Shown: one piece after another, positions 1-12,487 of the stretch | How positions within the stretch are numbered: the first letter of the stretch is position 1 | Layout: every line of letters begins with the position of its first letter | DNA from: a virus | Virus genome (UHGV): UHGV-0355038 | Direction: 5' to 3' (one strand) | DNA: 12,487 bases | Made by a program: the position numbers and the translations under genes | Notes under the pieces: model-generated | Told to the model about the DNA's origin: nothing | Database searches by the model: none | What the model saw: the letters and a program-made list of their open reading frames with translations, nothing else

Positions 1-106
1 CATAGCCAAAGGTGCCTGTGTATTTTTTTGAGTTTCAATTATTGCATTTCTCACCAGCGGTGGTAGTGCATATATCGGATAAGGATTTTCTGGTGCAAGT
101 AAGCAC
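1..106 (-). CDS. small hypothetical protein, N-terminal part only (runs off window start); paralog of the 357..584 ORF
   Basis: Minus-strand translation from the ATG at 106..104 gives MCLLAPENPYPIYALPPLVRNAIIETQKNTQAPLAM..., open to the window edge. A GAGAGG Shine-Dalgarno-like motif lies about 5 nt upstream. It shares the pattern PYP.YA.P...NAIIETQ.N..A.LAM with the 75-aa ORF at 357..584. Not in the ORF track because it is partial. Confidence 0.35.
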
Positions 107-143
107 ATAAAAGCCTCTCTTTTCATTAATGGGTTAGTAAAGT

Positions 144-179
144 AGCAGCAACTCCCGCTATAATAGCGAAATAGCTGCT
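144..179. promoter_or_regulatory. palindromic operator-like site upstream of the first small-gene copy
   Basis: AGCAGC (144..149) and GCTGCT (174..179) flank a central palindrome CGCTATAATAGCG that contains a TATAAT -10-like hexamer. It is the counterpart of the better-preserved site at 620..656. Confidence 0.3.
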
Positions 180-356
180 GTTCAGACCTAATGTTCTGAG
201 AAATACAGAATATCTGTAGATCTGATGTTTAATAAACCGATAAGGTTAATTCAGTTCATACTGTGTTATTTACCACGAAATATCATTCATGTTTCTCATT
301 CTTAACACCTCCTAAAATTATTTCACTAACACCTTCCCCCCGGTCTTTTTCCTTTC

Positions 357-584
357 TCAGGAATCAGCCAGAACCATAGTGTAAATATTAACGGGCCCAC
401 GTAAATTTCCGGGGTTGCACACGTCAATCTGATTCTGACAGGCAATTGACATCGCTGTTAATAATGATGTTGTAGTCATAGCCAGAGATGCTTTTTCATT
501 GTGTTGAGTTTCAATTATTGCATTTCCAGTCATTGATGGTTGCGCATATACTGGATACGGAGTATCCGGTTTGATGTAAGACAT
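357..584 (-). CDS. small hypothetical protein (75 aa), tandem paralog of the partial ORF at 1..106
   Basis: ATG start with an AAGGA Shine-Dalgarno motif about 8 nt upstream (minus-strand sense ...AAAAAAGGAAATATTTATG). The N-terminus MSYIKPDTPYPVYAQPSMTGNAIIETQHNEKASLAM aligns with the copy at 1..106. A palindromic operator-like site lies about 36 bp upstream. Confidence 0.45.
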   Translation of the reverse strand: MSYIKPDTPYPVYAQPSMTGNAIIETQHNEKASLAMTTTSLLTAMSIACQNQIDVCNPGNLRGPVNIYTMVLADS

Positions 585-619
585 AAATATTTCCTTTTTT
601 CGTAATAACTTTCGGTTAT

Positions 620-656
620 AGCAGCTATTTCCGCTACAATAGCAACAATAGCTGCT
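620..656. promoter_or_regulatory. perfect 10-bp inverted repeat operator-like site (AGCAGCTATT / AATAGCTGCT), 17-bp spacer
   Basis: AGCAGCTATT at 620..629 and AATAGCTGCT at 647..656 are exact reverse complements. The spacer TCCGCTACAATAGCAAC holds a TACAAT -10-like hexamer. The site sits between the small ORF start (584) and the AlpA-like gene end (690). Confidence 0.4.
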
Positions 657-689
657 ATACAGACTGGATATACTGAAAATACAGACAGT

Positions 690-917
690 TCATCTGGTCT
701 GTATCCAGCAGAGAAGGTCACTTAACAACCATCCGCAAGATTTCTTTCCGATAGACTTACGTGGTGGAAATGTTCCCTCCCGTTCAAGTTTCCACGCTTG
801 TGTACGAGAAATTGACGTGATCTCATATCGTTCCTTTTCACGTACCAGTCTGTCGCATTCAATCCCATAAGCTTTCAAAATGACCAGACGCTGTTCATCT
901 GTTAATGGAAGCCACAT
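690..917 (-). CDS. AlpA-family (phage Vis/AlpA-like) helix-turn-helix transcriptional regulator
   Basis: The track ORF 690..938 begins with a TTG codon. An internal ATG at 917..915 is preceded by a perfect AGGAGG Shine-Dalgarno motif at 5-nt spacing, so I place the start there (75 aa, MWLPLTDEQ...). The C-terminal segment ITSISRTQAWKLEREGTFPPRKSIGKKSCGWLLSDLLCWIQ matches, from memory, the AlpA pattern (S.STiyR...G.FP..+.+G.+s.gW...ei..Wi). Confidence 0.6.
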   Translation of the reverse strand: MWLPLTDEQRLVILKAYGIECDRLVREKERYEITSISRTQAWKLEREGTFPPRKSIGKKSCGWLLSDLLCWIQTR

Positions 918-1608
918 ACTACCCTCCTGATATATCAATACTTTTTATTTCCGGCATGAGCATGAAATGACTAAGTTTCCCGGATAAACAATGAGTGAAA
1001 GTCACTATCATTCATCCAGCCAACACCTTACAAATAAAATGTAATACTATGATTTTTATAGGTCAAAATACTGAATTGAAATGTTAAAATGGCTTTTAAT
1101 AGAAAAAATAAAGACATATAGAACCAAATAAAAACAAGCCGCGACCAATAAAAACAAAAATTAATATTAAAAATCCATTATGACGATTTTTGTTGACTAA
1201 AATTAGGTTGGGATATATAAATAAATCCATGTGAAATTCAAACAAAGCATGGAGGAGTCGCAGGAAGGTGAAATATTTCCATCTAATTTGTGATAATCAT
1301 CACAAAAATAAGCTACAACAAGCGGAGGAAAAGACAATCTGTTGCTGAACAGACAGAAGCAGGCTACGAATGATCGGAAAATGAAGCAAATACGCTTATA
1401 CAGAAGACGCAGGGGTAACTGACGGAGACAATCACAATCAGGAGAAAATGATCGTAAATAATGTATAAAATCTCAGGATATAAACAAATGTACACAAGCT
1501 ATCCACGTAATCTGCGGCTGGCTCAGGATTAACGTTTCATTTCAGTGGACGACATCGATTCTGTCTGACAGTGGGCCAATATGTGGCAAGCAGAAAACTT
1601 CTGACATC

Positions 1609-3240
1609 ATGGTAACTCGGACAATGCAACAAAAGTATGATCGTGTTTTATCTGGCGAATCCCACCCATTCCCTGGCATATACGAGGCGGTTTCCGAACA
1701 ACTCCTTTTGCTCATCTTTAAGGCTCGTCAGCTATATCAGAATCCAGAATATCGCCCCTGGTTTGAAGAACAGCACAGAGTTCTCTCTGCATTACGTGCT
1801 AATACAGAGCTCTTGAGAATATTTAGAGAACAAAGAAACGCGGAAGAACCAGAGCTTATTATTAAAGAATCTACATTACCCCTACTCACTAATTCTAATC
1901 TTACAGATGCGCTTAATATTATGTGCCATTTATACAATGGTTTTGATGAAGGAAATATCAGTCTGAAAACCTGGGGGGCGATGCAAGAGGTACAGACAAC
2001 ATCAACCTTTATCAGCCCGGGACCGAGAACCTGGAAAACACCTGAACTGGCAAAGTTTGTAGGAGATGATTTATTTAATATTCTGACTGAATGTAAAGCC
2101 TGGAGTTCACCAATTCCAGCAGAAACCCGACAGGGCTATTGCCATCAGGATCTGTCTGTTGCACACTCCTGCACCTCAGAGTTACTGGCACACCTGAATC
2201 AATACCATGAAATTGATGAATCAGCAATACTTGCCAGAGTTATTGGTATGACGGTTAACGGATTCTACAAGAAAAATAATACAGACCTCCCAGAATGGCT
2301 ATCCCCCTTTAAAGAGGAACATAAAATATTCAGAGATTGTCTGGAGCAAAAGACCGAGGATGTAATCAGACTGAAAGAACAACTGTTGAAAACAGGACGT
2401 TCAGAATTCGTGAATAATTTGTGTCGGGTCGCCAACTGGTATGAAATTAAGTCAATATACGATGAATATGTCCGTCTTTATGCCAATGAAATCATTGGTT
2501 GGTTCAACAAAACCATGGAATATTTTAAACCAACAGATTTTATCCGATATACATGGAAATTCGCAACAGTTACTCCAGATAAAGAGACAGAAACCAAGCA
2601 TACAACTGCATGGGAAAAGGATTATTGCCAGATAACTATACAACGTGATGAACTTCTGAGATTGATTCACACGAATACCCTTCAGGATGCAGTAATTTAT
2701 CTTTGCCATTGCCTGCAGAAGAAATACAAGAAATCATCCCAAAATGAGATAGAGTTTCCAGGAATAAAACCTCCGGCATCAGAGAGTGAAATTAATATAA
2801 CAGATAATTTTGAATTTTATTCTCTCCTGGAGCTCAGTAAAGATAATGAGAGGCGGCTGGAAACATTTCAAAAATGGTATGAAAAAAATAAAGTTTTGTT
2901 AGAAAGTCATAAACAAAAACGAACAGAGAAGATTGACGTTGCCGTACGACTTGTAGGGCTGAAAGCCTATGATCTGCATGAAGGGATTCCGGATAGTCCA
3001 AAACGAAAAGTTAAAGATGGCATAAATGAAGACATCAAAGCCGATACCAGTTTACGCCTGCCAAAGACAAATATAAGTGATACGTCGCTAAACCGTTATC
3101 GCCGCACTGTTAAGGAGATTATCAATAACGAAATCGACGCATTCCTGTTGGAACAGAAGAAAAAAAATAAAAGATTTCCCTACAGTGAAGATAGAGATGT
3201 GATTCGACCTTTATGGGGAAAATGCCTGACCGGGCAGTAG
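1609..3240 (+). CDS. hypothetical protein, 543 aa, no family recognised
   Basis: Long uninterrupted ORF; antisense ORFs inside it are short. A terminator-like hairpin follows the stop. No Walker A, HExxH or other motif I can name with confidence. The start is ambiguous between ATG 1609 and ATG 1624 (no strong Shine-Dalgarno for either). Confidence 0.65.
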   Translation: MVTRTMQQKYDRVLSGESHPFPGIYEAVSEQLLLLIFKARQLYQNPEYRPWFEEQHRVLSALRANTELLRIFREQRNAEEPELIIKESTLPLLTNSNLTDALNIMCHLYNGFDEGNISLKTWGAMQEVQTTSTFISPGPRTWKTPELAKFVGDDLFNILTECKAWSSPIPAETRQGYCHQDLSVAHSCTSELLAHLNQYHEIDESAILARVIGMTVNGFYKKNNTDLPEWLSPFKEEHKIFRDCLEQKTEDVIRLKEQLLKTGRSEFVNNLCRVANWYEIKSIYDEYVRLYANEIIGWFNKTMEYFKPTDFIRYTWKFATVTPDKETETKHTTAWEKDYCQITIQRDELLRLIHTNTLQDAVIYLCHCLQKKYKKSSQNEIEFPGIKPPASESEINITDNFEFYSLLELSKDNERRLETFQKWYEKNKVLLESHKQKRTEKIDVAVRLVGLKAYDLHEGIPDSPKRKVKDGINEDIKADTSLRLPKTNISDTSLNRYRRTVKEIINNEIDAFLLEQKKKNKRFPYSEDRDVIRPLWGKCLTGQ

Positions 3241-3248
3241 ATCACTGA

Positions 3249-3280
3249 GGGGATAACAGCCCGGTTATCCCCTGTTTGTT
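3249..3280 (+). terminator. intrinsic terminator-like hairpin between convergent genes
   Basis: GGGGATAAC (3249..3257), loop AGCCCG, GTTATCCCC (3264..3272): a perfect 9-bp stem. It is followed by TGTTTGTT and starts 9 nt after the stop of the 1609..3240 ORF. Confidence 0.5.
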
Positions 3281-3326
3281 CTGCTTCAGGTTGCCAGAGC
3301 TCCAGGAACACGAGGCAATCGGCAAA

Positions 3327-3923
3327 TTATGCGGCTTTTCCATTAACAGATTCGGCCACAAGAACAACACCGTGTTTGTTTCGATCAGGATGTTCACTCC
3401 AGATTTCTGATTCAGGAATGCTTTCCCCATCATAGCAGATCCGATCACCATCAAACGGATAATACCGTGCGGAATCTGTAGCTAAGATAAACACCTTAAG
3501 ATTCGTTGAACGACGCGCTATATGCTGCCAGAGGGCTTTACCTCCTTCATATTGCTCGTTATCACTTAATAGTATAACGCCTGCTTTTGTGGCTATTGTT
3601 TCATAAACAAACGTAGCAAGGCTAACATCACGTACAGCACCATCGACAACAATCCCTTCAATCTGAGCAACGTCCTGTTCTTCCCAGAATTTCCGGACAA
3701 ACACCCCTTCAAGTCGGGGACGACGCTGAAGCTCCAGAGTGGCAACAACCTTATGGCGAATATCACCATCAATAACAGAAGGTGCAGCTTCGATTACCGC
3801 AGCGAACGGAGTCTTTGGATCCCAGATGATCTGGTAAAGCACACCCTGAATAGTTACTCCATCCAGTATCGAAAAACGACGAGCTACAGTAGCAGGGGAG
3901 TAAGACATTGGAATGACAGCCAT
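3327..3923 (-). CDS. hypothetical protein, 198 aa, no family recognised
   Basis: ATG-initiated ORF on the minus strand, convergent with 1609..3240. The composition looks like a real globular protein (e.g. ...IATKAGVILLSDNEQYEGGKALWQHIARRS...). I could not assign a fold by eye. Confidence 0.6.
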   Translation of the reverse strand: MAVIPMSYSPATVARRFSILDGVTIQGVLYQIIWDPKTPFAAVIEAAPSVIDGDIRHKVVATLELQRRPRLEGVFVRKFWEEQDVAQIEGIVVDGAVRDVSLATFVYETIATKAGVILLSDNEQYEGGKALWQHIARRSTNLKVFILATDSARYYPFDGDRICYDGESIPESEIWSEHPDRNKHGVVLVAESVNGKAA

Positions 3924-4233
3924 TTTATGGCCTAAAATTTGAAAACATCAGTATCAATACTGACCTCATCAGTCTGAGCATATATTGATAAAGTTTTTAT
4001 GTTTACACTCAATAAATACCTTACCAAACAACTAATAGCGATGTCTACATTGCCATTCGACATGCTTACAATTTTTGTCAACAAGAAAGTGAATTTATAT
4101 CAACGGTAAGAAGTAAACACGAGGACACCAAAACCAAATGTACACACTTTTGTGCTTTGTGTCCCCTGTGTGTACCCAAATGACAAACTGCAAGAAAATC
4201 TAGGCACACACTTATCTAACTTATTGATTTAAA

Positions 4234-4279
4234 TGGTGCCGATAATAGGAGTCGAACCTACGACCTTCGCATTACGAAT
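4234..4279 (-). repeat. 46-nt 3' fragment of a tRNA gene (most likely tRNA-Thr CGU, thrW-like): integration-site (att) repeat
   Basis: Minus-strand sense reads ATTCGTAATGCGAAGGTCGTAGGTTCGACTCCTATTATCGGCACCA: anticodon loop with CGT, variable loop, T-arm GTAGG-TTCGACT-CCTAT, acceptor 3' strand TATCGGC, discriminator A and CCA. The sequence 5' of it (GGATTCTTATA) does not continue a D-arm or acceptor 5' strand, so this is a partial copy and not a gene. Confidence 0.65.
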
Positions 4280-5026
4280 TATAAGAATCCGCTTCTAATT
4301 CAAAGTATTACCCCATCAACACTGTGCTCACACGTCCCACCACATCAAAACATGTAAAGCCTTGCAAGCCATTGTGAGGCCTTATGTGTCTCAGTTTTGT
4401 CCCACCTTGTATTATGACTTGCATAGCCAATGAAGATAAACGTGACGACAAACAGCGCAGCAGTCTTCTTTTCTTTCACACTTTCCCCAATCAGCATACA
4501 TACTTTCTACCATAACTGTAGTGAATGTCTGTTATGAGCGAGCAAAAGAGATTCAATTACCGGGGAATTACTCCGACATAAGCTCTCCCAGAAACACCGG
4601 AACAGCGATTCGCATATTCTCTTCTATACTTTCAGTCTGACCGGCTGGAGATTTCATAGCAAGAAAATGGATGAGCCAAGACCTATGCGGGAAAGAGGCT
4701 GAGGAAATAATTGCCGATAGCACTGTGCCCGACGAAAAGTTAATCTGGCACGCAATGACGCGCGTCCTTGGGGCATCAGGAATCAGAGAGCCAACTTAAC
4801 AACCCATTATATATTATTTAACCGGACTGTTACATGTACAAAGTTCAATGATTAGTGATTCTGTGACGCCACATACAACCTAAGCCCCTGATATAAAACC
4901 AGTCTATGCAACACCTAAAAATCATATATGATAGGGTGATAAGTCAACGCGCAGTATAAAAATTAAGCTAAAAAATGCTTTCAGCATAGTGAATCTATTT
5001 CACACTACATAATTAAGGATGAAAAA

Positions 5027-5872
5027 ATGACTGCACCAGTAATTAGTTTTATCAATATGAAAGGTGGGGTTGGTAAAACAACTTTATGCGTTGGGATTGC
5101 TGAGTTTTTAGCCAACCATATGGGGCGCAAGGTTCTAGTTATCGATATTGATCCTCAATTTAATGCCACTCAGTCCTTAATGGGGCATTATGATCGAGTA
5201 GAAGAATATATGACTGCCCTTCGCCCTAATAATCAAACCATTCGAAAGATTTTTGAGCTTCCAAATTCATTAATGGAAGATGAAAAGAAAGTGACACCAG
5301 AACAGGTCATTACTAAAGTTTCAGACAATCTTGATATTATCTTAGGTGATATAAACATTATCTTTGATACTAACCAAGAGGGTATTAGAATAAAAATGTT
5401 GCGTAAATTCATCACCGAAAATGACTTAAAAGAAAGTTACGACTATATCTTTATCGATAGCCCCCCAACAATCTCATTATTTACAGATACCGCACTCCTT
5501 GCTTCTGATTATTATCTTACTCCGGTTAAAATTGATCACTACTCGGTGCTTGGAGCAAGCAGTTTAAATAGCGTTATAAGAAATATGCGCACACATCATG
5601 AGAAAGAAATCAAGCAAGTCGGTTACATTTATACAAACACTGATGCTGAAATGACCAATAAAACAAGGGAAATTAAAGAACAATTCGAAAACCATACTCA
5701 ATTTACAAATTTTTATTTCTTTGAAAATCAATTAACCTACGTGCGTGATTTAATGGTAGGTTATCAAGGAAATATTCCTTCTTGTTATTCAAAGTCACGC
5801 CAAGATATAGAAAAGATCTGTAACGAATTTATTAACAGAGTGGCTCACTTGGAAGGTAACACAAATGAATAA
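5027..5872 (+). CDS. ParA/MinD/Soj-family P-loop ATPase (deviant Walker A)
   Basis: AAGGA Shine-Dalgarno motif 7 nt upstream of the ATG. N-terminal INMKGGVGKTT (deviant Walker A KGGxxGK[ST]), VIDIDPQ (typical ParA DxDPQ motif) and a hydrophobic Walker B-like IFIDSPP. 281 aa, no N-terminal HTH extension. Confidence 0.75.
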   Translation: MTAPVISFINMKGGVGKTTLCVGIAEFLANHMGRKVLVIDIDPQFNATQSLMGHYDRVEEYMTALRPNNQTIRKIFELPNSLMEDEKKVTPEQVITKVSDNLDIILGDINIIFDTNQEGIRIKMLRKFITENDLKESYDYIFIDSPPTISLFTDTALLASDYYLTPVKIDHYSVLGASSLNSVIRNMRTHHEKEIKQVGYIYTNTDAEMTNKTREIKEQFENHTQFTNFYFFENQLTYVRDLMVGYQGNIPSCYSKSRQDIEKICNEFINRVAHLEGNTNE

Positions 5873-6263
5873 ACAATTAATTAAAGCGCTCAATAAAGCT
5901 AATAATATGCCCATGACCAAAGAAAACTTCTTAGGCTTGGTAATTATGTTGATTCTTTCAAAAGAGGTTTTTAGATCAAATTTTGATGTTAGTAAATTTA
6001 TTAACAAAACCTTCAAAATATCTTTTTTGAATTATGCTGTACGGTCAAGAACTTTGATGTGCGCTAAAATTTGCAGACATATTAATGAATTAAGTGAGAA
6101 TGACATAAAGATGGCTTATACGCATTTCTTAAACAACATTAACACATTAGACATTATTTTTAATGATGCAAATAAAACAAGCCAAAAACCCACATCTAAA
6201 AGCAAGCATGCTATAAGGAATTTAAATATTTGGATTAATGCAAATAAAAAGGAAGAAGAATAA
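5865..6263 (+). CDS. hypothetical protein, 132 aa, Lys/Asn-rich, no family recognised
   Basis: ATG overlaps the upstream stop by 8 nt (ATGAATAA). A GGAAGG Shine-Dalgarno motif lies about 8 nt upstream. Very AT-rich codon usage shared with its neighbours. Confidence 0.6.
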   Translation: MNKQLIKALNKANNMPMTKENFLGLVIMLILSKEVFRSNFDVSKFINKTFKISFLNYAVRSRTLMCAKICRHINELSENDIKMAYTHFLNNINTLDIIFNDANKTSQKPTSKSKHAIRNLNIWINANKKEEE

Positions 6264-6928
6264 TGCTCACGCAGGATCCCTTCAACATTGGAAGAGATGT
6301 AAATTATTTTAGAGCGGAGGTGCAAAAGCACCTCAGAACCACTGATGAAATAAACAAATCAGTATCAATATTTAGGCAAATAAGTCTTTGTAATACAATT
6401 TTAAGTCACAATCCTAATCTAAATCACTCTTCTTATATAAAAGGTTTTATATATGATACCTTAAACTCCTTAATTGCCATTATAAAAAAAAGAGAACGGT
6501 ATCTCCAACTGAACTTCCGCTCAATGGTGGAGCATGTGGCCAGAATAAGCCTCAATAAGAACTACAATGGTGGGGATTTTGACCAAACTGTACGTCGTAG
6601 AGACTTTGACTTCTTAAAAGCCCAACAAGTCGATGAAGGCTGGTCTTATTTACATAATGTCTATATCAACGCCTGTTATTATGTTCACTCCTCCCCCCAA
6701 GCGAACCTAAATGTTACATCAACATTTATATCACTTATGGAGGGAGATTGTAATTCAACACAGCATAAAATGGTGAAAAAACTTCATGAGGTAGTATCGG
6801 CGCTGATGAGAATCATTATAAAGTATTATCATCAGCATATCTCAAACATTTTCTTTAGAAACAAAAAGGATTTAGAGAAAATAATGGGAAAAAGCCTTTA
6901 TTCATATTATACCAGCTTAGACAATTAA
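6263..6928 (+). CDS. hypothetical protein, 221 aa, no family recognised (speculative HEPN-like R-x4-H motifs)
   Basis: Start overlaps the upstream stop by 1 nt (TAATG). An AAGGAAG Shine-Dalgarno motif is upstream. It contains R-x4-6-H strings (RSMVEH, RIIIKYYH) that could be coincidental. Confidence 0.6.
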   Translation: MLTQDPFNIGRDVNYFRAEVQKHLRTTDEINKSVSIFRQISLCNTILSHNPNLNHSSYIKGFIYDTLNSLIAIIKKRERYLQLNFRSMVEHVARISLNKNYNGGDFDQTVRRRDFDFLKAQQVDEGWSYLHNVYINACYYVHSSPQANLNVTSTFISLMEGDCNSTQHKMVKKLHEVVSALMRIIIKYYHQHISNIFFRNKKDLEKIMGKSLYSYYTSLDN

Positions 6929-6965
6929 TTCTCTCATATTCATTGCGTAGAGCATAAATATCTAT

Positions 6966-7461
6966 CTAACCACCTAAAATGCCAGAAAATCTAGTTGTAT
7001 ACCGGTGCGAAAATATCTCGCGTTTCATCTGCCACTGCTGCTGAATGCCCTGCCCAGCGAAACAGAGTGTTTCCTTCCCGTCTTTTGCATTGAGGTGCTC
7101 CAGCACGCTCATTAACTTTTCGCTCCCAGGACCCAGCGCGTTATCGTCGAATAGGTTAGGGCATGCTCTGACTGAAGAAGTCCCCCAGCATTACCCCGGC
7201 TTTCTGATATCGGTGTCCGTCTTTCCATATTGCATCCAGACTCCCCGTTGCTACTGCAATGATATCCCGACTGTCCTGTGTCGGGATGAGCAGCTTCACC
7301 GACGCGCTGTTACAGTAGTACGACTCGTTCAACGCAAAGGGTATCGTGTAAAACCGATGATGACACTGCCGGCAATCAGCACTGACGTCAGCAAACGTGA
7401 GAAAGAACAGATAAGCCGAACGATTTAGGAAATGTTTGAAGAGACTGATATGTGGATGGTT
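6966..7461 (-). pseudogene. umuC: umuC-like Y-family translesion polymerase gene, 3' remnant, frameshifted and 5'-truncated
   Basis: Minus-strand translation gives ...FYTIPFALNESYYCNSASVKLLIPTQDSRDIIAVATGSLDAIWKDGHRYQKAGVMLGDFFSQ. After a frameshift near 7160..7175 it gives NLFDDNALGPGSEKLMSVLEHLNAKDGKETLCFAGQGIQQQWQMKREIFSHRYTTRFSGILGG-stop. This matches my recollection of the UmuC C-terminus (...HRYQKAGVMLGDFFSQ...NLFDDNA...GQGIQQQWQMKR...PRYTTR...). No intact ORF remains, and the upstream extent (possibly to about 7790) is uncertain. Confidence 0.6.
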
Positions 7462-7858
7462 TCAGTTTAAACGCCTTGAACCGTCATATTACCTAAGTAC
7501 AATCCGCTGTGACTGGCAATCATTCAATACTTGCACTATCAAAAGTGCATCAGCCAACCGCAGCACGTCTTGCATACGACCTGTCTGCGGTTTCAATCAC
7601 CTCTCACCACCAGTCCCATCAATAATAATTAAACAGCGCCTAAACAAAATAAATAACAACAAGTCAACAACCTCGACAGGATGCCGATGGGATGATGAAG
7701 AGATAAGAAAGAATAACTAGTAAAGCCCTAAAACGTCAGCGTTCAGACGCGTTTTTTACTTAACCGGTAACAAATACGTTGTATCATAGCAACATAAAAT
7801 GATTGTTCTAAATCAGATTAACTCCTCACTTTTGTACAATGTCGCTTACAGGTATACC

Positions 7859-9748
7859 ATGAAATCCGAGACGCTAACTGTCCAACAACTTTTTCAAGAC
7901 CGCCGACAATACTGTGTTCCATTCTATCAACGTGCCTATGTATGGACTCAGCGAAACCAATGGTCAGCTCTACTGGAGGATATCCTAGAGAAAGCACAAT
8001 CCCGGCTCTCGGGTACAAAACCAACTCCCCATTTCCTTGGTGCAGTGGTACTGGAACCTCAACCAAAAAAAGGATTATTCGGTGTAGATTCCATACATAT
8101 TATTGATGGTCAGCAACGATTGACCACTCTTCAATATGTTCTGGCATCCATCCGATTAGCATTACGTGCGACAGATCTTTCCAACTTAGAGCCTCTCATT
8201 TCGTCTTGCCTGAAAAACTCAAACGAAGACACAATGCGAAATAAAGAAGTAGAGCGCTTCAAACTGTGGCCAACTTTTCGGGATCAAACTCATTTTATTC
8301 AAAGTTTTAATGTTGAAAATATTGACGATATCCGGAATGTATTCTCTGATAGTTTCACGCAGCATGGTACGTTGCGTAAGCATTTTAATCACCCGCCATC
8401 ACTAGAAGCATTATGTTTTTTTACTGAAGCCTTTATAAAGTGGATTAAAATAGAAAATCACTCACCACGAGAAAATGCTGTAGCATTAATTGAGGCTGTC
8501 TTGACGGATCTGAAACTAGTAAGCATATTTCTCGAGGCTGAAGATGACGCTCAAATAATTTTTGAAACATTAAATGGCAGAGGTGCGGAACTTCATGCCA
8601 CAGATCTTATTCGCAATTATATTTTTATGTGCGCTGAACATGAAAATATTAATGCTGTTGAATTATATGAGAATGAGTGGAAGATCTTTGAAGATACGTA
8701 CTGGTCAGAAAGACAACGTCGTGGTCGTATTAATAAACCACGCATGGAGTGGCTAGTGCATGCAACATTGCAATCAGAAAGGCAACGTGAAATCGATCTG
8801 TCTCGTCTTTACAATGAGTATCGTGATTATGTAAGTAAGGACTTGCCTTCACAACGAGCAGATCTGCAAGTAAAGCGCCTCAAACAATATGCATCACAAT
8901 ATAAAGAATTGGTTGGTGGTTTTGGCACAACCCCCATCTCACACTTTGGACATCGCATCGCAGCCTATGATGTGACGACACTTTATCCGCTTGCTTTGTT
9001 CATTTCGATAGCTAACATCGCCGATGATGAGAAAGCAGCCATGTATAATGATCTTGTCTCCTACGTAGTACGAAGAGCCGTATGTGGCCTGACGCCAAAG
9101 AATTACAACAATGTATTTATGAATGTATTGCGGCACTTGTCTAAAACAGAAATTTCCAGTGTTGAGTTACGTAATATCCTCAATAGCTTAAATGGCGAAG
9201 CCTCACGTTGGCCTGGGGACTCAGAATTTCTCAACGCTTGCATCAATGCTCCACTTTATCCTGGCAGGCTCGACGCACCGAAAATGCGCTCAATGTTAAC
9301 GGAACTTGAAAGAGAACTTTGTCGCCAAGTGAAGACAGAGAAGCCTGATGTTCCAAATCTTTCTAACCTCGATATCGATCATCTTATGCCTCAAAGTTGG
9401 TATTCCTGTTGGCCTCTCGAAAATGGTCATATAGTGACAAATTCAGATGCTACGGTATTGAACCAAATTGTTCTGTCTGGAACCGATCTTACCCCAGAAC
9501 AGCTACTGGTAAGGAAACGGCAACAAGCGATAGCTACGTTGGGAAATCTAACTTTGCTTAACCTTAGCGTAAACCGTTCTGTTCAGAATGCTGTATTTCT
9601 GAAAAAACGTGATGCTCTCATCGTCCACACCAATCTACGACTGAACATTCCACTTATAGTTAAGGATAAATGGGATGAGGATGAAATCCTGGAGCGGGGT
9701 AAAAAGTTGGGGGAAATTGCATTGAAAGTATGGCCAAAACACGATTAA
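7859..9748 (+). CDS. GmrSD-family putative type IV (modification-dependent) restriction endonuclease: N-terminal DUF262 (ParB-like NTPase) plus C-terminal DUF1524 (His-Me finger nuclease)
   Basis: N-terminal YCVPFYQRAYVW and IIDGQQRLTTLQ (the DGQQR signature of DUF262). C-terminal LSNLDIDHLMPQSW (DUF1524-like D-H..P.S nuclease motif). The track ORF starts at ATG 7799; I prefer the in-frame ATG at 7859 (AGG 9 nt upstream; the conserved block then starts near residue 18), but 7799 is possible. Confidence 0.75.
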   Translation: MKSETLTVQQLFQDRRQYCVPFYQRAYVWTQRNQWSALLEDILEKAQSRLSGTKPTPHFLGAVVLEPQPKKGLFGVDSIHIIDGQQRLTTLQYVLASIRLALRATDLSNLEPLISSCLKNSNEDTMRNKEVERFKLWPTFRDQTHFIQSFNVENIDDIRNVFSDSFTQHGTLRKHFNHPPSLEALCFFTEAFIKWIKIENHSPRENAVALIEAVLTDLKLVSIFLEAEDDAQIIFETLNGRGAELHATDLIRNYIFMCAEHENINAVELYENEWKIFEDTYWSERQRRGRINKPRMEWLVHATLQSERQREIDLSRLYNEYRDYVSKDLPSQRADLQVKRLKQYASQYKELVGGFGTTPISHFGHRIAAYDVTTLYPLALFISIANIADDEKAAMYNDLVSYVVRRAVCGLTPKNYNNVFMNVLRHLSKTEISSVELRNILNSLNGEASRWPGDSEFLNACINAPLYPGRLDAPKMRSMLTELERELCRQVKTEKPDVPNLSNLDIDHLMPQSWYSCWPLENGHIVTNSDATVLNQIVLSGTDLTPEQLLVRKRQQAIATLGNLTLLNLSVNRSVQNAVFLKKRDALIVHTNLRLNIPLIVKDKWDEDEILERGKKLGEIALKVWPKHD

Positions 9749-9770
9749 TGCAATTAATAAAATGATTATA

Positions 9771-9794
9771 GCGGCCTTACATTAGTAAGGCCGC
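9771..9794. terminator. perfect 10-bp stem hairpin downstream of the GmrSD-like gene
   Basis: GCGGCCTTAC-ATTA-GTAAGGCCGC. The T-run is weak on the plus strand; on the minus strand it is followed by TATAATCATTTTATT. It may terminate either or both convergent transcripts. Confidence 0.4.
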
Positions 9795-9839
9795 TACTCA
9801 CTATTAAATCCTTTAATTTGCAACAAGAACAGCAGTGTC

Positions 9840-9971
9840 AGCCCTAGGTTTCGGACTTTGTACCGCTTATCTTGTCTTCAAAATCAGCTCGCATCCTGCA
9901 CAGTTCAGCGCATTACGTTGTAGATCTGTGTTCTGGTCATTTGTTGATACGCGAACATAGCCAATAAGCAT
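9840..9971 (-). pseudogene. pin: Gin/Pin/Cin/Hin-family serine DNA invertase, N-terminal stub only
   Basis: Minus-strand ATG at 9971..9969 translates MLIGYVRVSTNDQNTDLQRNALNCAGCELI, the near-invariant invertase N-terminus containing the catalytic-serine region (VRVST). A 1-nt loss in a T-run then shifts the frame (LKTR-stop); the +1 frame still reads FEDKISGTKSE before a TAG. Homology ends around 9830 where the GmrSD cassette begins. Not in the ORF track (too short). Confidence 0.7.
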
Positions 9972-10000
9972 GATAGCTCCTCCTGACAAAAACAGGAACG

Positions 10001-10474
10001 ATGCCATTTGCGCGCTATTTCTGCATTTTCATAAACGTTCAATTGGGAGAAGCGGCAAAACGGGATGTCGGAACCGGTAATAATCAACTCCCGGACATGT
10101 CCGCATTTGGTATGTCGCGAAACGGACAAACTGCCTGGGATATTCTCCCAAATGGTATGATTCGACAGGTTGGTACTGTGACACTGACGCCTGTTGGTAA
10201 TTTCAACGCAATTACTCTTGGTGGAGTGCTGTACTACACCCATTACTACAGGGTTAATTTCCCCAGACAATTCCCAAATGCACAAATAGCAACGCTGGCA
10301 ACACTAGCGAGTTACAGCTTTTCGACCCAGTCATCAATGGCTGGGAAATCACTGGCAACGCATCGCGATACTGATTCTGGCACTGACGTATCAAGAACGC
10401 GATTCACTGTGTCGTATACGACACCCAATCTCGGCGAAATTCCGACTTTGCATTTTGAAGCAATAGGATACTAA
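10001..10474 (+). CDS. alternative tail-fibre C-terminal (receptor-binding tip) cassette, S'-like, inverted relative to the expressed fibre gene
   Basis: 157-aa ORF; the frame is open from 9977. Its beginning ...INVQLGEAAKRDVGTGNN... parallels ...NALQLGTAATRDVGADNA... inside the minus-strand fibre gene, and both end in A(I/L)GY. The cassette has no obvious promoter or Shine-Dalgarno motif of its own. Confidence 0.55.
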   Translation: MPFARYFCIFINVQLGEAAKRDVGTGNNQLPDMSAFGMSRNGQTAWDILPNGMIRQVGTVTLTPVGNFNAITLGGVLYYTHYYRVNFPRQFPNAQIATLATLASYSFSTQSSMAGKSLATHRDTDSGTDVSRTRFTVSYTTPNLGEIPTLHFEAIGY

Positions 10475-10476
10475 AT

Positions 10477-10710
10477 ATGGAGAATATGTATTTCAGCCCA
10501 ACGACCGTTGGTTTTTATGTTTCTGAACAAGAGCGACCTGATGATGCGGTTGAAGTCTCGCCAGAGGTGGAGGCATTTTTGAGGGAGTGTGTTATCTGGG
10601 GAGCGGATACATTTAACGTAGAGCGAGATGCAGCAACGGTGACATATCCAACAGAACTGCTTGAATATGTCACCACCTACAACGCCCCCGTTAAATATCC
10701 TGCGGATTGA
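10477..10710 (+). CDS. small ORF downstream of the S' cassette, U'-like (alternative tail fibre assembly chaperone), possibly truncated
   Basis: ATG 2 nt after the S' stop (TAA-at-ATG), the same spacing as the fibre/Tfa junction on the other strand (TAA-ga-ATG). It is 77 aa, and its 3' end overlaps the 3' end of the minus-strand Tfa gene by 20 bp. The assignment is by position; I see no family motif. Confidence 0.4.
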   Translation: MENMYFSPTTVGFYVSEQERPDDAVEVSPEVEAFLRECVIWGADTFNVERDAATVTYPTELLEYVTTYNAPVKYPAD

Positions 10711-11101
10711 CAGGCCATACGGGTTTTGCTGTATCAACGCGCATCAGCAAGACCCGGTATTTTTTCCATTCAGATAACGCGGCGGTTTCTTCTGCCGTCG
10801 CGATTTCCGCATCAAAAGCATCCTGTCTCCAGGCTATTTCCTTATCAGCCATAGAACGCAATACCGTTCTTTTCTGTTCAGCCTGAATAATCTGTTGTTC
10901 AGCGGAGAGTGGCGGGATATCAATCCACGCAGGATTACCATTTTTATCAGCCCCCAGCGTTTTGCCTTGTGGCGCTACGCCTGTGTAAATTGCCATTGTT
11001 TCATCATCAACATCAACGCCATTTTCAGGCCATGAACCGGCGCTGATATATACCTCTTTTAGTGCTTTCGGATAGAAAGAGCCTTTATAAAATTTATTCA
11101 T
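10691..11101 (-). CDS. tfa: tail fibre assembly protein (lambda Tfa / Mu U family)
   Basis: C-terminal ...[27 protein letters not shown]... matches, from memory, the conserved lambda Tfa C-terminus (...[25 protein letters not shown]..WP). I place the start at the ATG at 11101, which is 2 nt after the fibre stop with GGGG upstream; the track ORF from 11131 would overlap the fibre gene. Confidence 0.75.
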   Translation of the reverse strand: [136 protein letters not shown]

Positions 11102-11103
11102 TC

Positions 11104-12487
11104 TTAATACCCCAGCGCGATAAAACAACAATCTTCGGTGCCCTCTCCGGATGGCGACCAGTTCTGAATACTGATATGCGTTCTGCTGGCAATACGCACA
11201 TTCATCGCGGCATTGTAGCCAGATGTTCCACGGTTTCCGGTCGCAAATAAGCCTGCATAGGGAAAAGCAAATGGTAAGGCATATCCAGCATCAGCTCCCT
11301 TTTGTGTTGCCACCATTCCCCACTGCAACATAAGTTTCACCGGGTTTCCTGTCGTCGCAATGCATGGAATGTAGATGTAGCCATTCCCTGACATCATTGA
11401 CCTGAAGCTGTCTAAACCCAGTAACTTCGAGGCATTATCTGCTCCAACATCTCGTGTTGCGGCGGTCCCTAACTGGAGCGCATTTCGGAAGGCTGATACA
11501 TCAGAAATATCAGCTCCATTAGCCGATTTCTGCATAGCTCCGGAGGCTTTATTTATCGTTTCGCCCAAACCAAGGTATGCGAGAAGACCAGCTACATCCT
11601 TTCCACTCAAATTAGTCAGCGTATTGTCCAGCGGTTGTTTGCCCGCCAGTGCGCTCTGTACTTCGCTTTTGCTGTAGGCATCCAGATCTTTAGGCGTAAG
11701 CGTAATATCCTTCGTGCCGTCAAACGGAACGCCGTTGATATTCCGTGCAGTCTGTAGTTTTGTGGCAGTTGCAGCATTACCAGTGGTGTTCTGATTACCC
11801 GTAGTGTTTACACCTGGAAGGTTAATATTTGCAGAACCGTCGAAAACAACTCCACCGATAGATCTTGCCGTCTGCAATTTCGTGGCTGTACTTGCATTAC
11901 CATTCAATGAACCAGTTAATCCACCTGTAACAGACAACGGACCTGAAACTGTTCCTCCGGTTGTTGGCAGTGCTCCAATATCTAACGGCGTCGGTTTCTG
12001 ATGTGTGCTATACATCGTATAAACAACACCATAGGTAACGCTGGAAGGCTTACTCGCTGAATATGTTGGCGAGGTATAAACAGAAACTGACGCATTTGCA
12101 GTACAATCCCAATGGATATTTACACTCGTCGCATAATTGCCAATCTCAACGTAAATATCATATGTATCGCCGGATGTGTTGATCCAGGCGAAATTCGTTA
12201 ATCCGACGGCTGTACGCTTCCACAAAGCCCCGGTAATTCCTTTGGGGTTTCCATTGCCTGCTCGTAGAACCAGTTCTGAAATGCCTGCCTGATGTGGGGA
12301 ACCGACGTTGTAACCAGCGCCACCAATCAATGCGATGTAAACGATGGAACTCGCCTGTGGCATGGTTACCGTTGCTAATTTGAACCAACCAGCACCACCG
12401 CTGAATGACATTGTTGTTGAGTTAAGCGTACCAATATCTTTCGGCGTCAGTGTTATATCCGCTGAAAGCGCCTTACCATTCACCTTA
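11104..12487 (-). CDS. stf: side tail fibre protein, C-terminal about 460 aa (5' end beyond the window)
   Basis: Repeated fibre motifs (DITLTPKD twice; ATKLQTARSIGGVVFDGSANI / ATKLQTARNINGVPFDGTKDI), Gly/Ser/Thr-rich composition, and an immediately downstream Tfa. The track methionine at 12483 is probably internal. Confidence 0.8.
   Translation of the reverse strand, partial: KVNGKALSADITLTPKDIGTLNSTTMSFSGGAGWFKLATVTMPQASSIVYIALIGGAGYNVGSPHQAGISELVLRAGNGNPKGITGALWKRTAVGLTNFAWINTSGDTYDIYVEIGNYATSVNIHWDCTANASVSVYTSPTYSASKPSSVTYGVVYTMYSTHQKPTPLDIGALPTTGGTVSGPLSVTGGLTGSLNGNASTATKLQTARSIGGVVFDGSANINLPGVNTTGNQNTTGNAATATKLQTARNINGVPFDGTKDITLTPKDLDAYSKSEVQSALAGKQPLDNTLTNLSGKDVAGLLAYLGLGETINKASGAMQKSANGADISDVSAFRNALQLGTAATRDVGADNASKLLGLDSFRSMMSGNGYIYIPCIATTGNPVKLMLQWGMVATQKGADAGYALPFAFPYAGLFATGNRGTSGYNAAMNVRIASRTHISIQNWSPSGEGTEDCCFIALGY

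Follow-up and report, generated by a model that had tools for sequence, protein, structure and literature searches.

A half-tRNA sequence as the attR core of a lambda-like prophage in thrW of Escherichia coli Ec-2977

Does a 46-nt half of a threonine tRNA gene mark the place where a prophage ends, and on which of its two sides does the prophage then lie? The question is raised by positions 4234-4279 of a stretch of DNA of 12,487 nucleotides, hereafter the window, for which the initial annotation, made from the letters alone, had proposed a partial tRNA-Thr(CGU) 3' end acting as an attachment-site repeat at a prophage boundary. The window is 100% identical to part of the chromosome of Escherichia coli Ec-2977, a urine isolate (NZ_CM192148.1; record position = 3,594,927 + x for window position x), and its surroundings were read from the RefSeq annotation of 87 kb of this strain. 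The Ec-2977 record is a CM-prefixed chromosome assembly, and matching context is also present in the finished genomes of strains YJ3 and H8.

The half-tRNA sequence and its intact counterpart

Read on the minus strand, positions 4234-4279 give ATTCGTAATGCGAAGGTCGTAGGTTCGACTCCTATTATCGGCACCA, which occurs once in the window and was matched with up to three mismatches by none of 200 dinucleotide shuffles. Alignment with the intact thrW gene for tRNA-Thr(CGU) of Ec-2977 revealed identity at all 46 positions, corresponding to nt 31-76 of the tRNA. The sequence begins with the final base of the anticodon stem's 5' strand and runs through the CGU-bearing anticodon loop, variable loop, T arm, and acceptor 3' strand to CCA. 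From 4280 onward the 5' half of the tRNA is missing, and TATAAGAATCC stands in place of GCGCTGCTCTACC, to which it is unrelated. ARAGORN called no tRNA in the window, nor did Rfam at a permissive E-value over its whole length, as is expected for a half-molecule; the permissive Rfam search returned only sub-threshold matches, namely IS009 (37.5 bits, the gathering score being 117) and chance snoRNA, lncRNA, and miRNA hits. Silent searches of this kind would also accompany a tRNA-like sequence that arose by chance, or a degenerate tRNA pseudogene, that owes nothing to site-specific recombination. We nevertheless discard this explanation altogether, as it is refuted by the 46/46 identity, where none is expected by chance, by the break exactly at the published boundary of an attP core, and by the homology to the attP arm of Sf phages that starts at the very next base.

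Both ends of the fragment are base-exact, with CCA ending at 4234 and the homology to empty sites with intact thrW ending at 4279, and the coordinates of the initial annotation thus hold to the base. Our only addition to them is that the direct repeat includes another 17 nt after CCA, all but one of them matching, as revealed by alignments and blastn-short, which brings the repeat to 63 nt in total. The sole mismatch lies at 4231, with A at attR and T at the intact-tRNA end (attL). In blastn-short searches, the 63-nt attR sequence was identical at 63/63 positions to YJ3, H8, ampC_0069, and phage SfII, and at 62/63 to attL and phage SfI. The published core of the Sf phages is 46 bp long and ends at CCA, and the 63-nt block found here is longer. 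We also observed that the 17-nt extension is kept in three unrelated left-flank contexts, that is, next to the island of Ec-2977, next to an integrase remnant in ampC_0069, and in phage DNA, and that the 63-nt identity between phage attP and chromosome starts exactly at the int stop codon TAA (the equivalent of window positions 4217-4219).

An intact 76-nt tRNA-Thr(CGU) gene, together with the matching direct repeat that the initial annotation had proposed to look for, was located with ARAGORN on the minus strand of the Ec-2977 record at 3,645,615-3,645,690. It is thrW in its canonical place beside proA-proB-phoE-crl. The two 46-nt copies share the same orientation and have a start-to-start spacing of 46,454 bp, and both the intact gene and the integrase lie at higher coordinates, which assigns the integrated element to the tail-fibre side, as had been predicted from the orientation of the fragment. 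An intact tRNA at lower coordinates had been named as the finding that would reverse this boundary, and ARAGORN detected none in the 20 kb left of the fragment. The tyrosine integrase gene directly abuts intact thrW, and its stop codon, 15 nt from the tRNA gene, opens the 17-nt tail; an excisionase-type HTH gene comes next, and the C-terminus of the integrase shows the catalytic HxLRH...Y motif.

In the RefSeq annotation, the interval from thrW to the fragment is filled by an uninterrupted lambda-like prophage. Its early part comprises yfdP-T-like genes, cI/cro-type repressors, replication genes, RusA, and Q, its late part comprises holin/endolysin/Rz, terminase, portal, capsid, tail tube, tape measure, gpJ, Lom, tail fibre, and assembly protein, and an accessory 'b-region' follows the tail fibre genes and ends at the fragment. 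The structural, lysis, and regulatory genes are all annotated as intact, and one early-region gene is annotated as frameshifted. On the strength of these sequence comparisons, we regard it as very nearly certain that positions 4234-4279 represent the attR core (P-O-B') of a 46,454-bp lambda-like prophage residing in thrW of E. coli Ec-2977, and none of our observations speaks against this assignment. The features on either side of this core are listed in Table 1.

Table 1. Features of the window in window coordinates, from the left-hand island through attR to the tail-fibre genes
Feature	Position	Strand	Evidence
B' side, att-proximal end of resident integrase-less island	1-4216	.	Annotation, Pfam, empty-site comparison
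YfjI start	1-108	-	
DUF3987 fragment	360-584	-	
AlpA-family regulator	690-917	-	Pfam PF05930, E = 2e-13
543-aa ORF	1609-3240	+	
198-aa ORF	3327-3923	-	
17-nt extension beyond CCA, B' side	4217-4233	-	Alignments, blastn-short
attR core, copy of thrW nt 31-76	4234-4279	-	46/46 to intact thrW; equals 46-bp attP core of SfI/SfIV/SfV
P arm of attR, phage DNA directly inside prophage	4280-4404	.	Homologous to Sf attP arm away from int
att-proximal prophage end, continued	4405-4546	.	Shared with other thrW lambda-like prophages; ~89-91% to phi458 and phage 21
b-region cargo, attR to tail-fibre genes	4547-9971	+	RefSeq, Pfam, PADLOC, PHROGs
SOS-response-associated (SRAP) peptidase remnant	~4659-4799		Homology to ampC_0069 annotation
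ParA-like ATPase, 281 aa	5027-5872	+	
Overlapping 132-aa and 221-aa ORFs	5865-6928	+	PHROGs 6264 and 7540 (unknown function)
UmuC C-terminal (DUF4113) pseudogene and DinI fragment	6966-7429		
GmrSD type IV (modification-dependent) restriction enzyme, full-length	7799-9748	+	Pfam GmrSD_N and GmrSD_C; PADLOC mREase_IV, 1436 bits
Invertase pseudogene	9850-9971	-	
Distal end of prophage late operon	10001-12487	-	Annotation, Pfam, PHROGs
gp53-like fibre tip, opposite orientation	10001-10474	+	
Tail-fibre-assembly (tfa) fragment	10477-10710	+	
Tail-fibre assembly gene	10691-11101	-	
Tail-fibre gene, running off the window	11104 onwards	-	

Empty and occupied sites and the left-hand island

A comparison with empty sites, which the initial annotation had suggested as a check, could be made on a large scale and gave exact breakpoints. 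The empty-site query was assembled from window positions 3800-4279 joined to the 5' half of thrW and the proA flank of Ec-2977, and was searched in 5,426 complete E. coli genomes. Matches across the empty junction, in which the island is followed by intact thrW and proA, were obtained in 213 genomes, including several with 100% identity along the entire 919-nt query, among them the finished genome of YJ3. In YJ3, the whole left-hand context of the window (lsrR-lsrK, cupin, NERD kinase remnant, TOTE remnant, IS21, Gp2/YagK, YfjI, DUF3987, AlpA, 543-aa ORF, 198-aa ORF) abuts intact thrW-proA with no prophage. In the converse search, the homology of the empty-site genomes to the window ended exactly at 4279.

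The occupied junction, in which the island is followed by the core and an Sf-type arm, was found in 18 genomes, those besides Ec-2977 being 94-98% identical, and the exact junction region at a coverage of at least 80% is present in one of the 5,426 genomes. The adjoining stretch 4405-4546 also occurs in other lambda-like prophages at thrW, among them those of 17 genomes with the identical succession of island, core, and arm. Strain H8 combines the occupied junction with another prophage end, carrying Avs2 instead of the ParA/GmrSD cargo, and in strain ampC_0069 the prophage end is the same while the left flank is another one, consisting of a 155-nt integrase remnant and then yagU-ykgJ-ecp. The empty, the occupied, and the ampC_0069 junctions thus amount to a presence/absence polymorphism with base-exact ends in more than one chromosomal background, and judged by these sequences, their distribution would fit recent, repeated acquisition of the prophage.

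The DNA to the left of the fragment had been described as mobile-looking, with an AlpA-like regulator, unassigned ORFs, and no integrase beside the repeat, and this description is borne out by the PF05930 match, the annotation, and tblastn. The segment 1-4216 includes 293 nt of non-coding DNA, and the island DNA is low in G+C (32-44%). Its backbone of AlpA, DUF3987/YfjI, YagK/Gp2, IS21, and IS66 is part of an extensive mosaic island, riddled with IS elements, which further holds a copy of the lsr operon, C4-dicarboxylate/aspartase (dcu) modules, PTS modules, and NERD-kinase and TOTE remnants. Where the prophage is absent, namely in YJ3 and 212 other genomes, this resident island directly adjoins thrW. 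The island was therefore at thrW before the phage arrived, as seen in YJ3, and the part of the initial annotation that spoke of an older resident island of mobile-element-like character is right.

The other part of that proposal, a decayed island in a tandem array at the same tRNA, fared differently. Left of the fragment no integrase is annotated, and six-frame translation of 3924-4233 yielded no integrase-like ORF. Besides, tblastn with the SfI integrase against window positions 1-4300 gave no match better than E = 7.5, and neither the 198-aa nor the 543-aa ORF contains a recombinase domain; ampC_0069, by contrast, has its integrase remnant at that position. A leftward search for a third att copy with blastn-short (word size 7) found only chance matches of up to 15 nt in 20 kb of Ec-2977, ~44 kb of YJ3, and ~54 kb of H8. 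As neither an integrase remnant nor a third att copy within 20-54 kb was found, the evidence stops short of a tandem att array in the strict sense.

The same observations bear on an alternative proposal in two versions. In one, the fragment would be the repeat that terminates the left-hand island, the boundary then being reversed; in the other, it would be the site shared in the middle of a genuine tandem array, the island having a distal att of its own. The backbone genes and the base composition of the left side are hallmarks of a mobile island, thrW is a recognised hotspot for islands (PMC7545054), and experiments with SfI and SfX have demonstrated integration of a newcomer at the tRNA-proximal att (attL) of a resident (PMC3306764), a documented tandem arrangement at thrW whose geometry is that of the Ec-2977 locus. 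However, a minus-strand copy of the 3' half closes an element lying toward the intact tRNA, which here means higher coordinates, and leftward neither a tRNA in 20 kb nor an integrase or its remnant came to light; a third att copy of at least 16 nt was likewise missing from the three leftward stretches searched. The island, moreover, is a pre-existing B' flank that is not demonstrably delimited by the 4234-4279 repeat. The version with the reversed boundary is refuted by the position of the intact tRNA, and we consider the proposal as a whole highly improbable. We retain the fragment as the attR core of the prophage on the right, with the island as its older neighbour.

On the distal side of thrW, the island of Ec-2977 takes up the slot that is also used by CP4-6 of K-12, PAI III-536, and the APEC Vat/Tsh island, and it combines the AlpA/YfjI/YagK-type backbone known from P4-integrase islands with IS elements. 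It differs from CP4-6, PAI III-536, and the Vat/Tsh island in having no detected integrase or distal repeat, and in its cargo of lsr, dcu/aspartase, PTS, NERD-kinase, and TOTE.

Some further observations on the island deserve mention. On its thrW-distal side, in YJ3 as well as in Ec-2977, it contains a complete copy of the lsr (autoinducer-2 uptake) operon, flanked by IS100/IS21 and YjhX-toxin fragments; unlike here, where it sits inside a mosaic island, the lsr operon is usually found in a K-12-like chromosomal context. A mis-assembly or inversion was considered for the leftward lsr genes and rejected, as the same arrangement also occurs in finished genomes with the lsr copy inside the mosaic island. 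In addition, an ISCro1 element (IS66 family, with tnpA/tnpB/transposase), located at 3,587,070-3,590,573 of the Ec-2977 record, is inserted in istB of an IS21 copy; in YJ3, istB is intact and the island otherwise identical.

The conserved 543-aa and 198-aa ORFs lie between AlpA and att, which is the slot of the integrase in CP4-57/P4-type islands. Sequence searches of Pfam, NCBIfam, PADLOC, PHROGs, and PDB returned no informative family for either of them; over its full length the 198-aa protein matches phrog_7522, a family of unknown function, and its single-sequence AlphaFold model (mean pLDDT of 42) was discarded as unusable.

Cargo and tail-fibre genes inside attR

What lies just inside attR varies from one phage to the next, with gtrABC in the Sf phages, Avs2 in H8, and GmrSD together with a ParA-like/132-aa/221-aa trio in Ec-2977, and owing to these differing contents the position behaves as a variable cargo/defence slot. 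The trio (5027-6928) has a G+C content of ~30-35% and is present in other thrW prophages, for example in ampC_0069, and its 132-aa and 221-aa ORFs belong to no Pfam/NCBIfam family. When the b-region was compared with a collection of sequenced phages, only pieces of the tail-fibre and invertase genes matched, the ParA trio and GmrSD being absent from that collection. An integrated lambda-like prophage has no obvious need of a partition system. It is conceivable that this trio forms an undescribed prophage cargo system, and likewise that the 198-aa and 543-aa ORFs of the island form an uncharacterised functional module, for instance a defence/mobility pair replacing int, but we would rate both ideas as rather unlikely.

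Farther from attR, positions 9850-12487 look like a decayed tail-fibre inversion switch, with an invertase pseudogene and with a reversed fibre tip and tfa fragment facing the active stf/tfa genes. Long inverted repeats that could serve as crossover sites no longer remain at this switch, where the search yielded only a 20-nt pair with 80% complementarity. The sub-threshold IS009 match of the Rfam scan (E = 7.5e-6) falls within the tail-fibre assembly gene, at 10725-10901 on the minus strand, and is probably due to sequence homology between the tfa regions of prophages and not to an RNA gene.

Strand exchange and the thrW attachment system

From xis through int to the core, the Ec-2977 prophage aligns in one ungapped piece each with Shigella phages SfIV (99.9% identity), SfV (99.1%), SfII (98.8%), and SfI (97.6%), and its int-xis-att region is ~80.6% identical to that of the P22-like phages ES18 and L; the labels 'P22 attP site' and 'tRNA-like fragment' stand at this place in their records. 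On the P-arm side, the identity to SfV/SfII/SfIV is 97.3% over 4217-4404, a span that includes the 63-nt core, the arm proper being the 125 nt of 4280-4404; the homology to the phage attP arm begins at 4280, the base right after the core. The 46-nt 'attP core' annotated in the SfI record (JX509734) coincides base for base with the fragment. Three-way alignment revealed that attL equals SfI attP on its int side and thrW/proA on the other, and that attR equals SfI attP on its inner (right, gtr) side and consists of non-phage island DNA on the left, so that the inner flanks of both junctions jointly rebuild the attP of a characterised phage. When SfI attP was scanned for repeats that might represent arm-type sites, a palindrome and a single weak direct pair of 10 nt came up, and nothing convincing; no arm-type Int or IHF sites were identified. 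The 46-bp attP is reported to be identical in SfI, SfIV, and SfV and to be found at both prophage ends (PMC3851460), and integration of these phages takes place in thrW downstream of proA (PMC3851460; PMC3306764). Judged by its defining features at the sequence level, the site studied here is a member of the SfI/SfII/SfIV/SfV (P22-type) thrW attachment system.

The two junctions can be accounted for by the following course of events. The phage brought along an int-xis-attP module of the SfI/SfII/SfIV/SfV, P22-type kind, whose attP duplicates thrW nt 31-76 together with the 17 nt downstream of it. Reciprocal recombination between attP and chromosomal thrW, downstream of proBA, was catalysed by Int and inserted the phage. 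At attL, beside int, the tRNA gene was rebuilt from its chromosomal 5' part and a phage-borne 3' part, and the tRNA remains intact because the latter is now supplied by the phage. The original chromosomal 3' part now lies 46 kb off, at the opposite end of the prophage, where it forms attR and hence the fragment in the window.

The base at 4231, which is the third after CCA, bears on where the strands were exchanged, as attR shares its allele (A) with the empty-site strains and attL shares its allele (T) with SfI attP. This segregation places strand exchange on the tRNA side of that base; the allele is supportive and not decisive for the crossover, since it varies among phages and SfII attP carries the 'chromosomal' one. 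We infer that the strands would be exchanged within or close to the anticodon loop, where the block of identity begins, and that this 7-nt loop would be the overlap. Williams reportedly assigned the use of the anticodon-loop sublocation to the P22-type integrase class in 2002.

Considering that int and xis are nearly identical to those of an inducible phage, that the two 46-nt cores are identical, and that the structural genes are annotated as intact, we infer that the prophage may still be excisable by Int and Xis. It could be argued that attR is correctly identified in sequence and is today a historical scar of a prophage that has become fixed and can no longer leave, as the att-proximal b-region contains SRAP, UmuC-C, DinI, and invertase remnants and one early-region gene is frameshifted. 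Against such fixation stand the 99.9% identity of int and xis, in one ungapped piece, to the inducible phage SfIV, the two identical cores, and the intact structural, lysis, and regulatory genes, as well as the rarity of the exact junction, the 94-98% identity of the other occupied ones, and the 213 empty sites, which fit recent, repeated acquisition. We thus hold fixation to be unlikely and favor a prophage that is putatively still excisable.

For annotation, the outcome is that the right end of a 46.45-kb prophage is fixed to the base, with the core at 4234-4279 and its inner side at 4279/4280, that the integration module is identified as SfI/SfIV-type, and that the left-hand DNA is recognised as a separate, older island and not as part of the phage. 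In kind, the site is a textbook attR scar that was already known, and it makes no open question testable. Two known themes are illustrated by it, one being the variable cargo slot just inside attR and the other the exchange of int-xis-attP modules between phages of unrelated morphology, here the Sf phages, which are Myoviridae-like according to the literature, versus a lambda-like phage. The difference from the named phages concerns not the att site but the body and cargo of the phage joined to it, and amounts to ordinary modular exchange.

The closest known counterpart is the thrW system of SfI, SfII, SfIV, and SfV, which shares with the Ec-2977 prophage the identical 46-nt core, an int-xis identity of 97.6-99.9% at the nucleotide level, a P arm that is ~97% identical over ~125 nt, integration in thrW just downstream of proA, and the placement of int at attL and of cargo at attR. 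The Ec-2977 phage differs from the Sf phages in its lambda-like body (gpJ, Lom, stf/tfa, lambda-type head genes, and the Q antiterminator), in the slot beside attP, which holds the ParA-like trio, remnants of SOS genes, and GmrSD instead of gtrABC, and in its host, a urinary E. coli and not Shigella. P22, along with ES18 and phage L, which recombine with thrW of Salmonella, has the same integrase family, target tRNA, and sublocation, whereas its int-xis-att identity reaches only ~80.6%, its body is that of a podovirus (P22, L) or of another type, and its host is Salmonella. In integrated lambda, the core is duplicated at both ends and the phage arms lie on the inner sides. The attR described here has the same P-O-B' topology, with the order attL-int-xis-early-late-J-lom-stf-tfa-b region-attR, as read from the annotation, and with a final J-lom-stf-tfa-b region-attR succession that is that of the lambda prophage. 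The core of lambda, however, measures 15 bp and its attB is intergenic (gal-bio), whereas the core of the Ec-2977 prophage spans 46 (63) bp inside a tRNA gene that is repaired by the phage copy.
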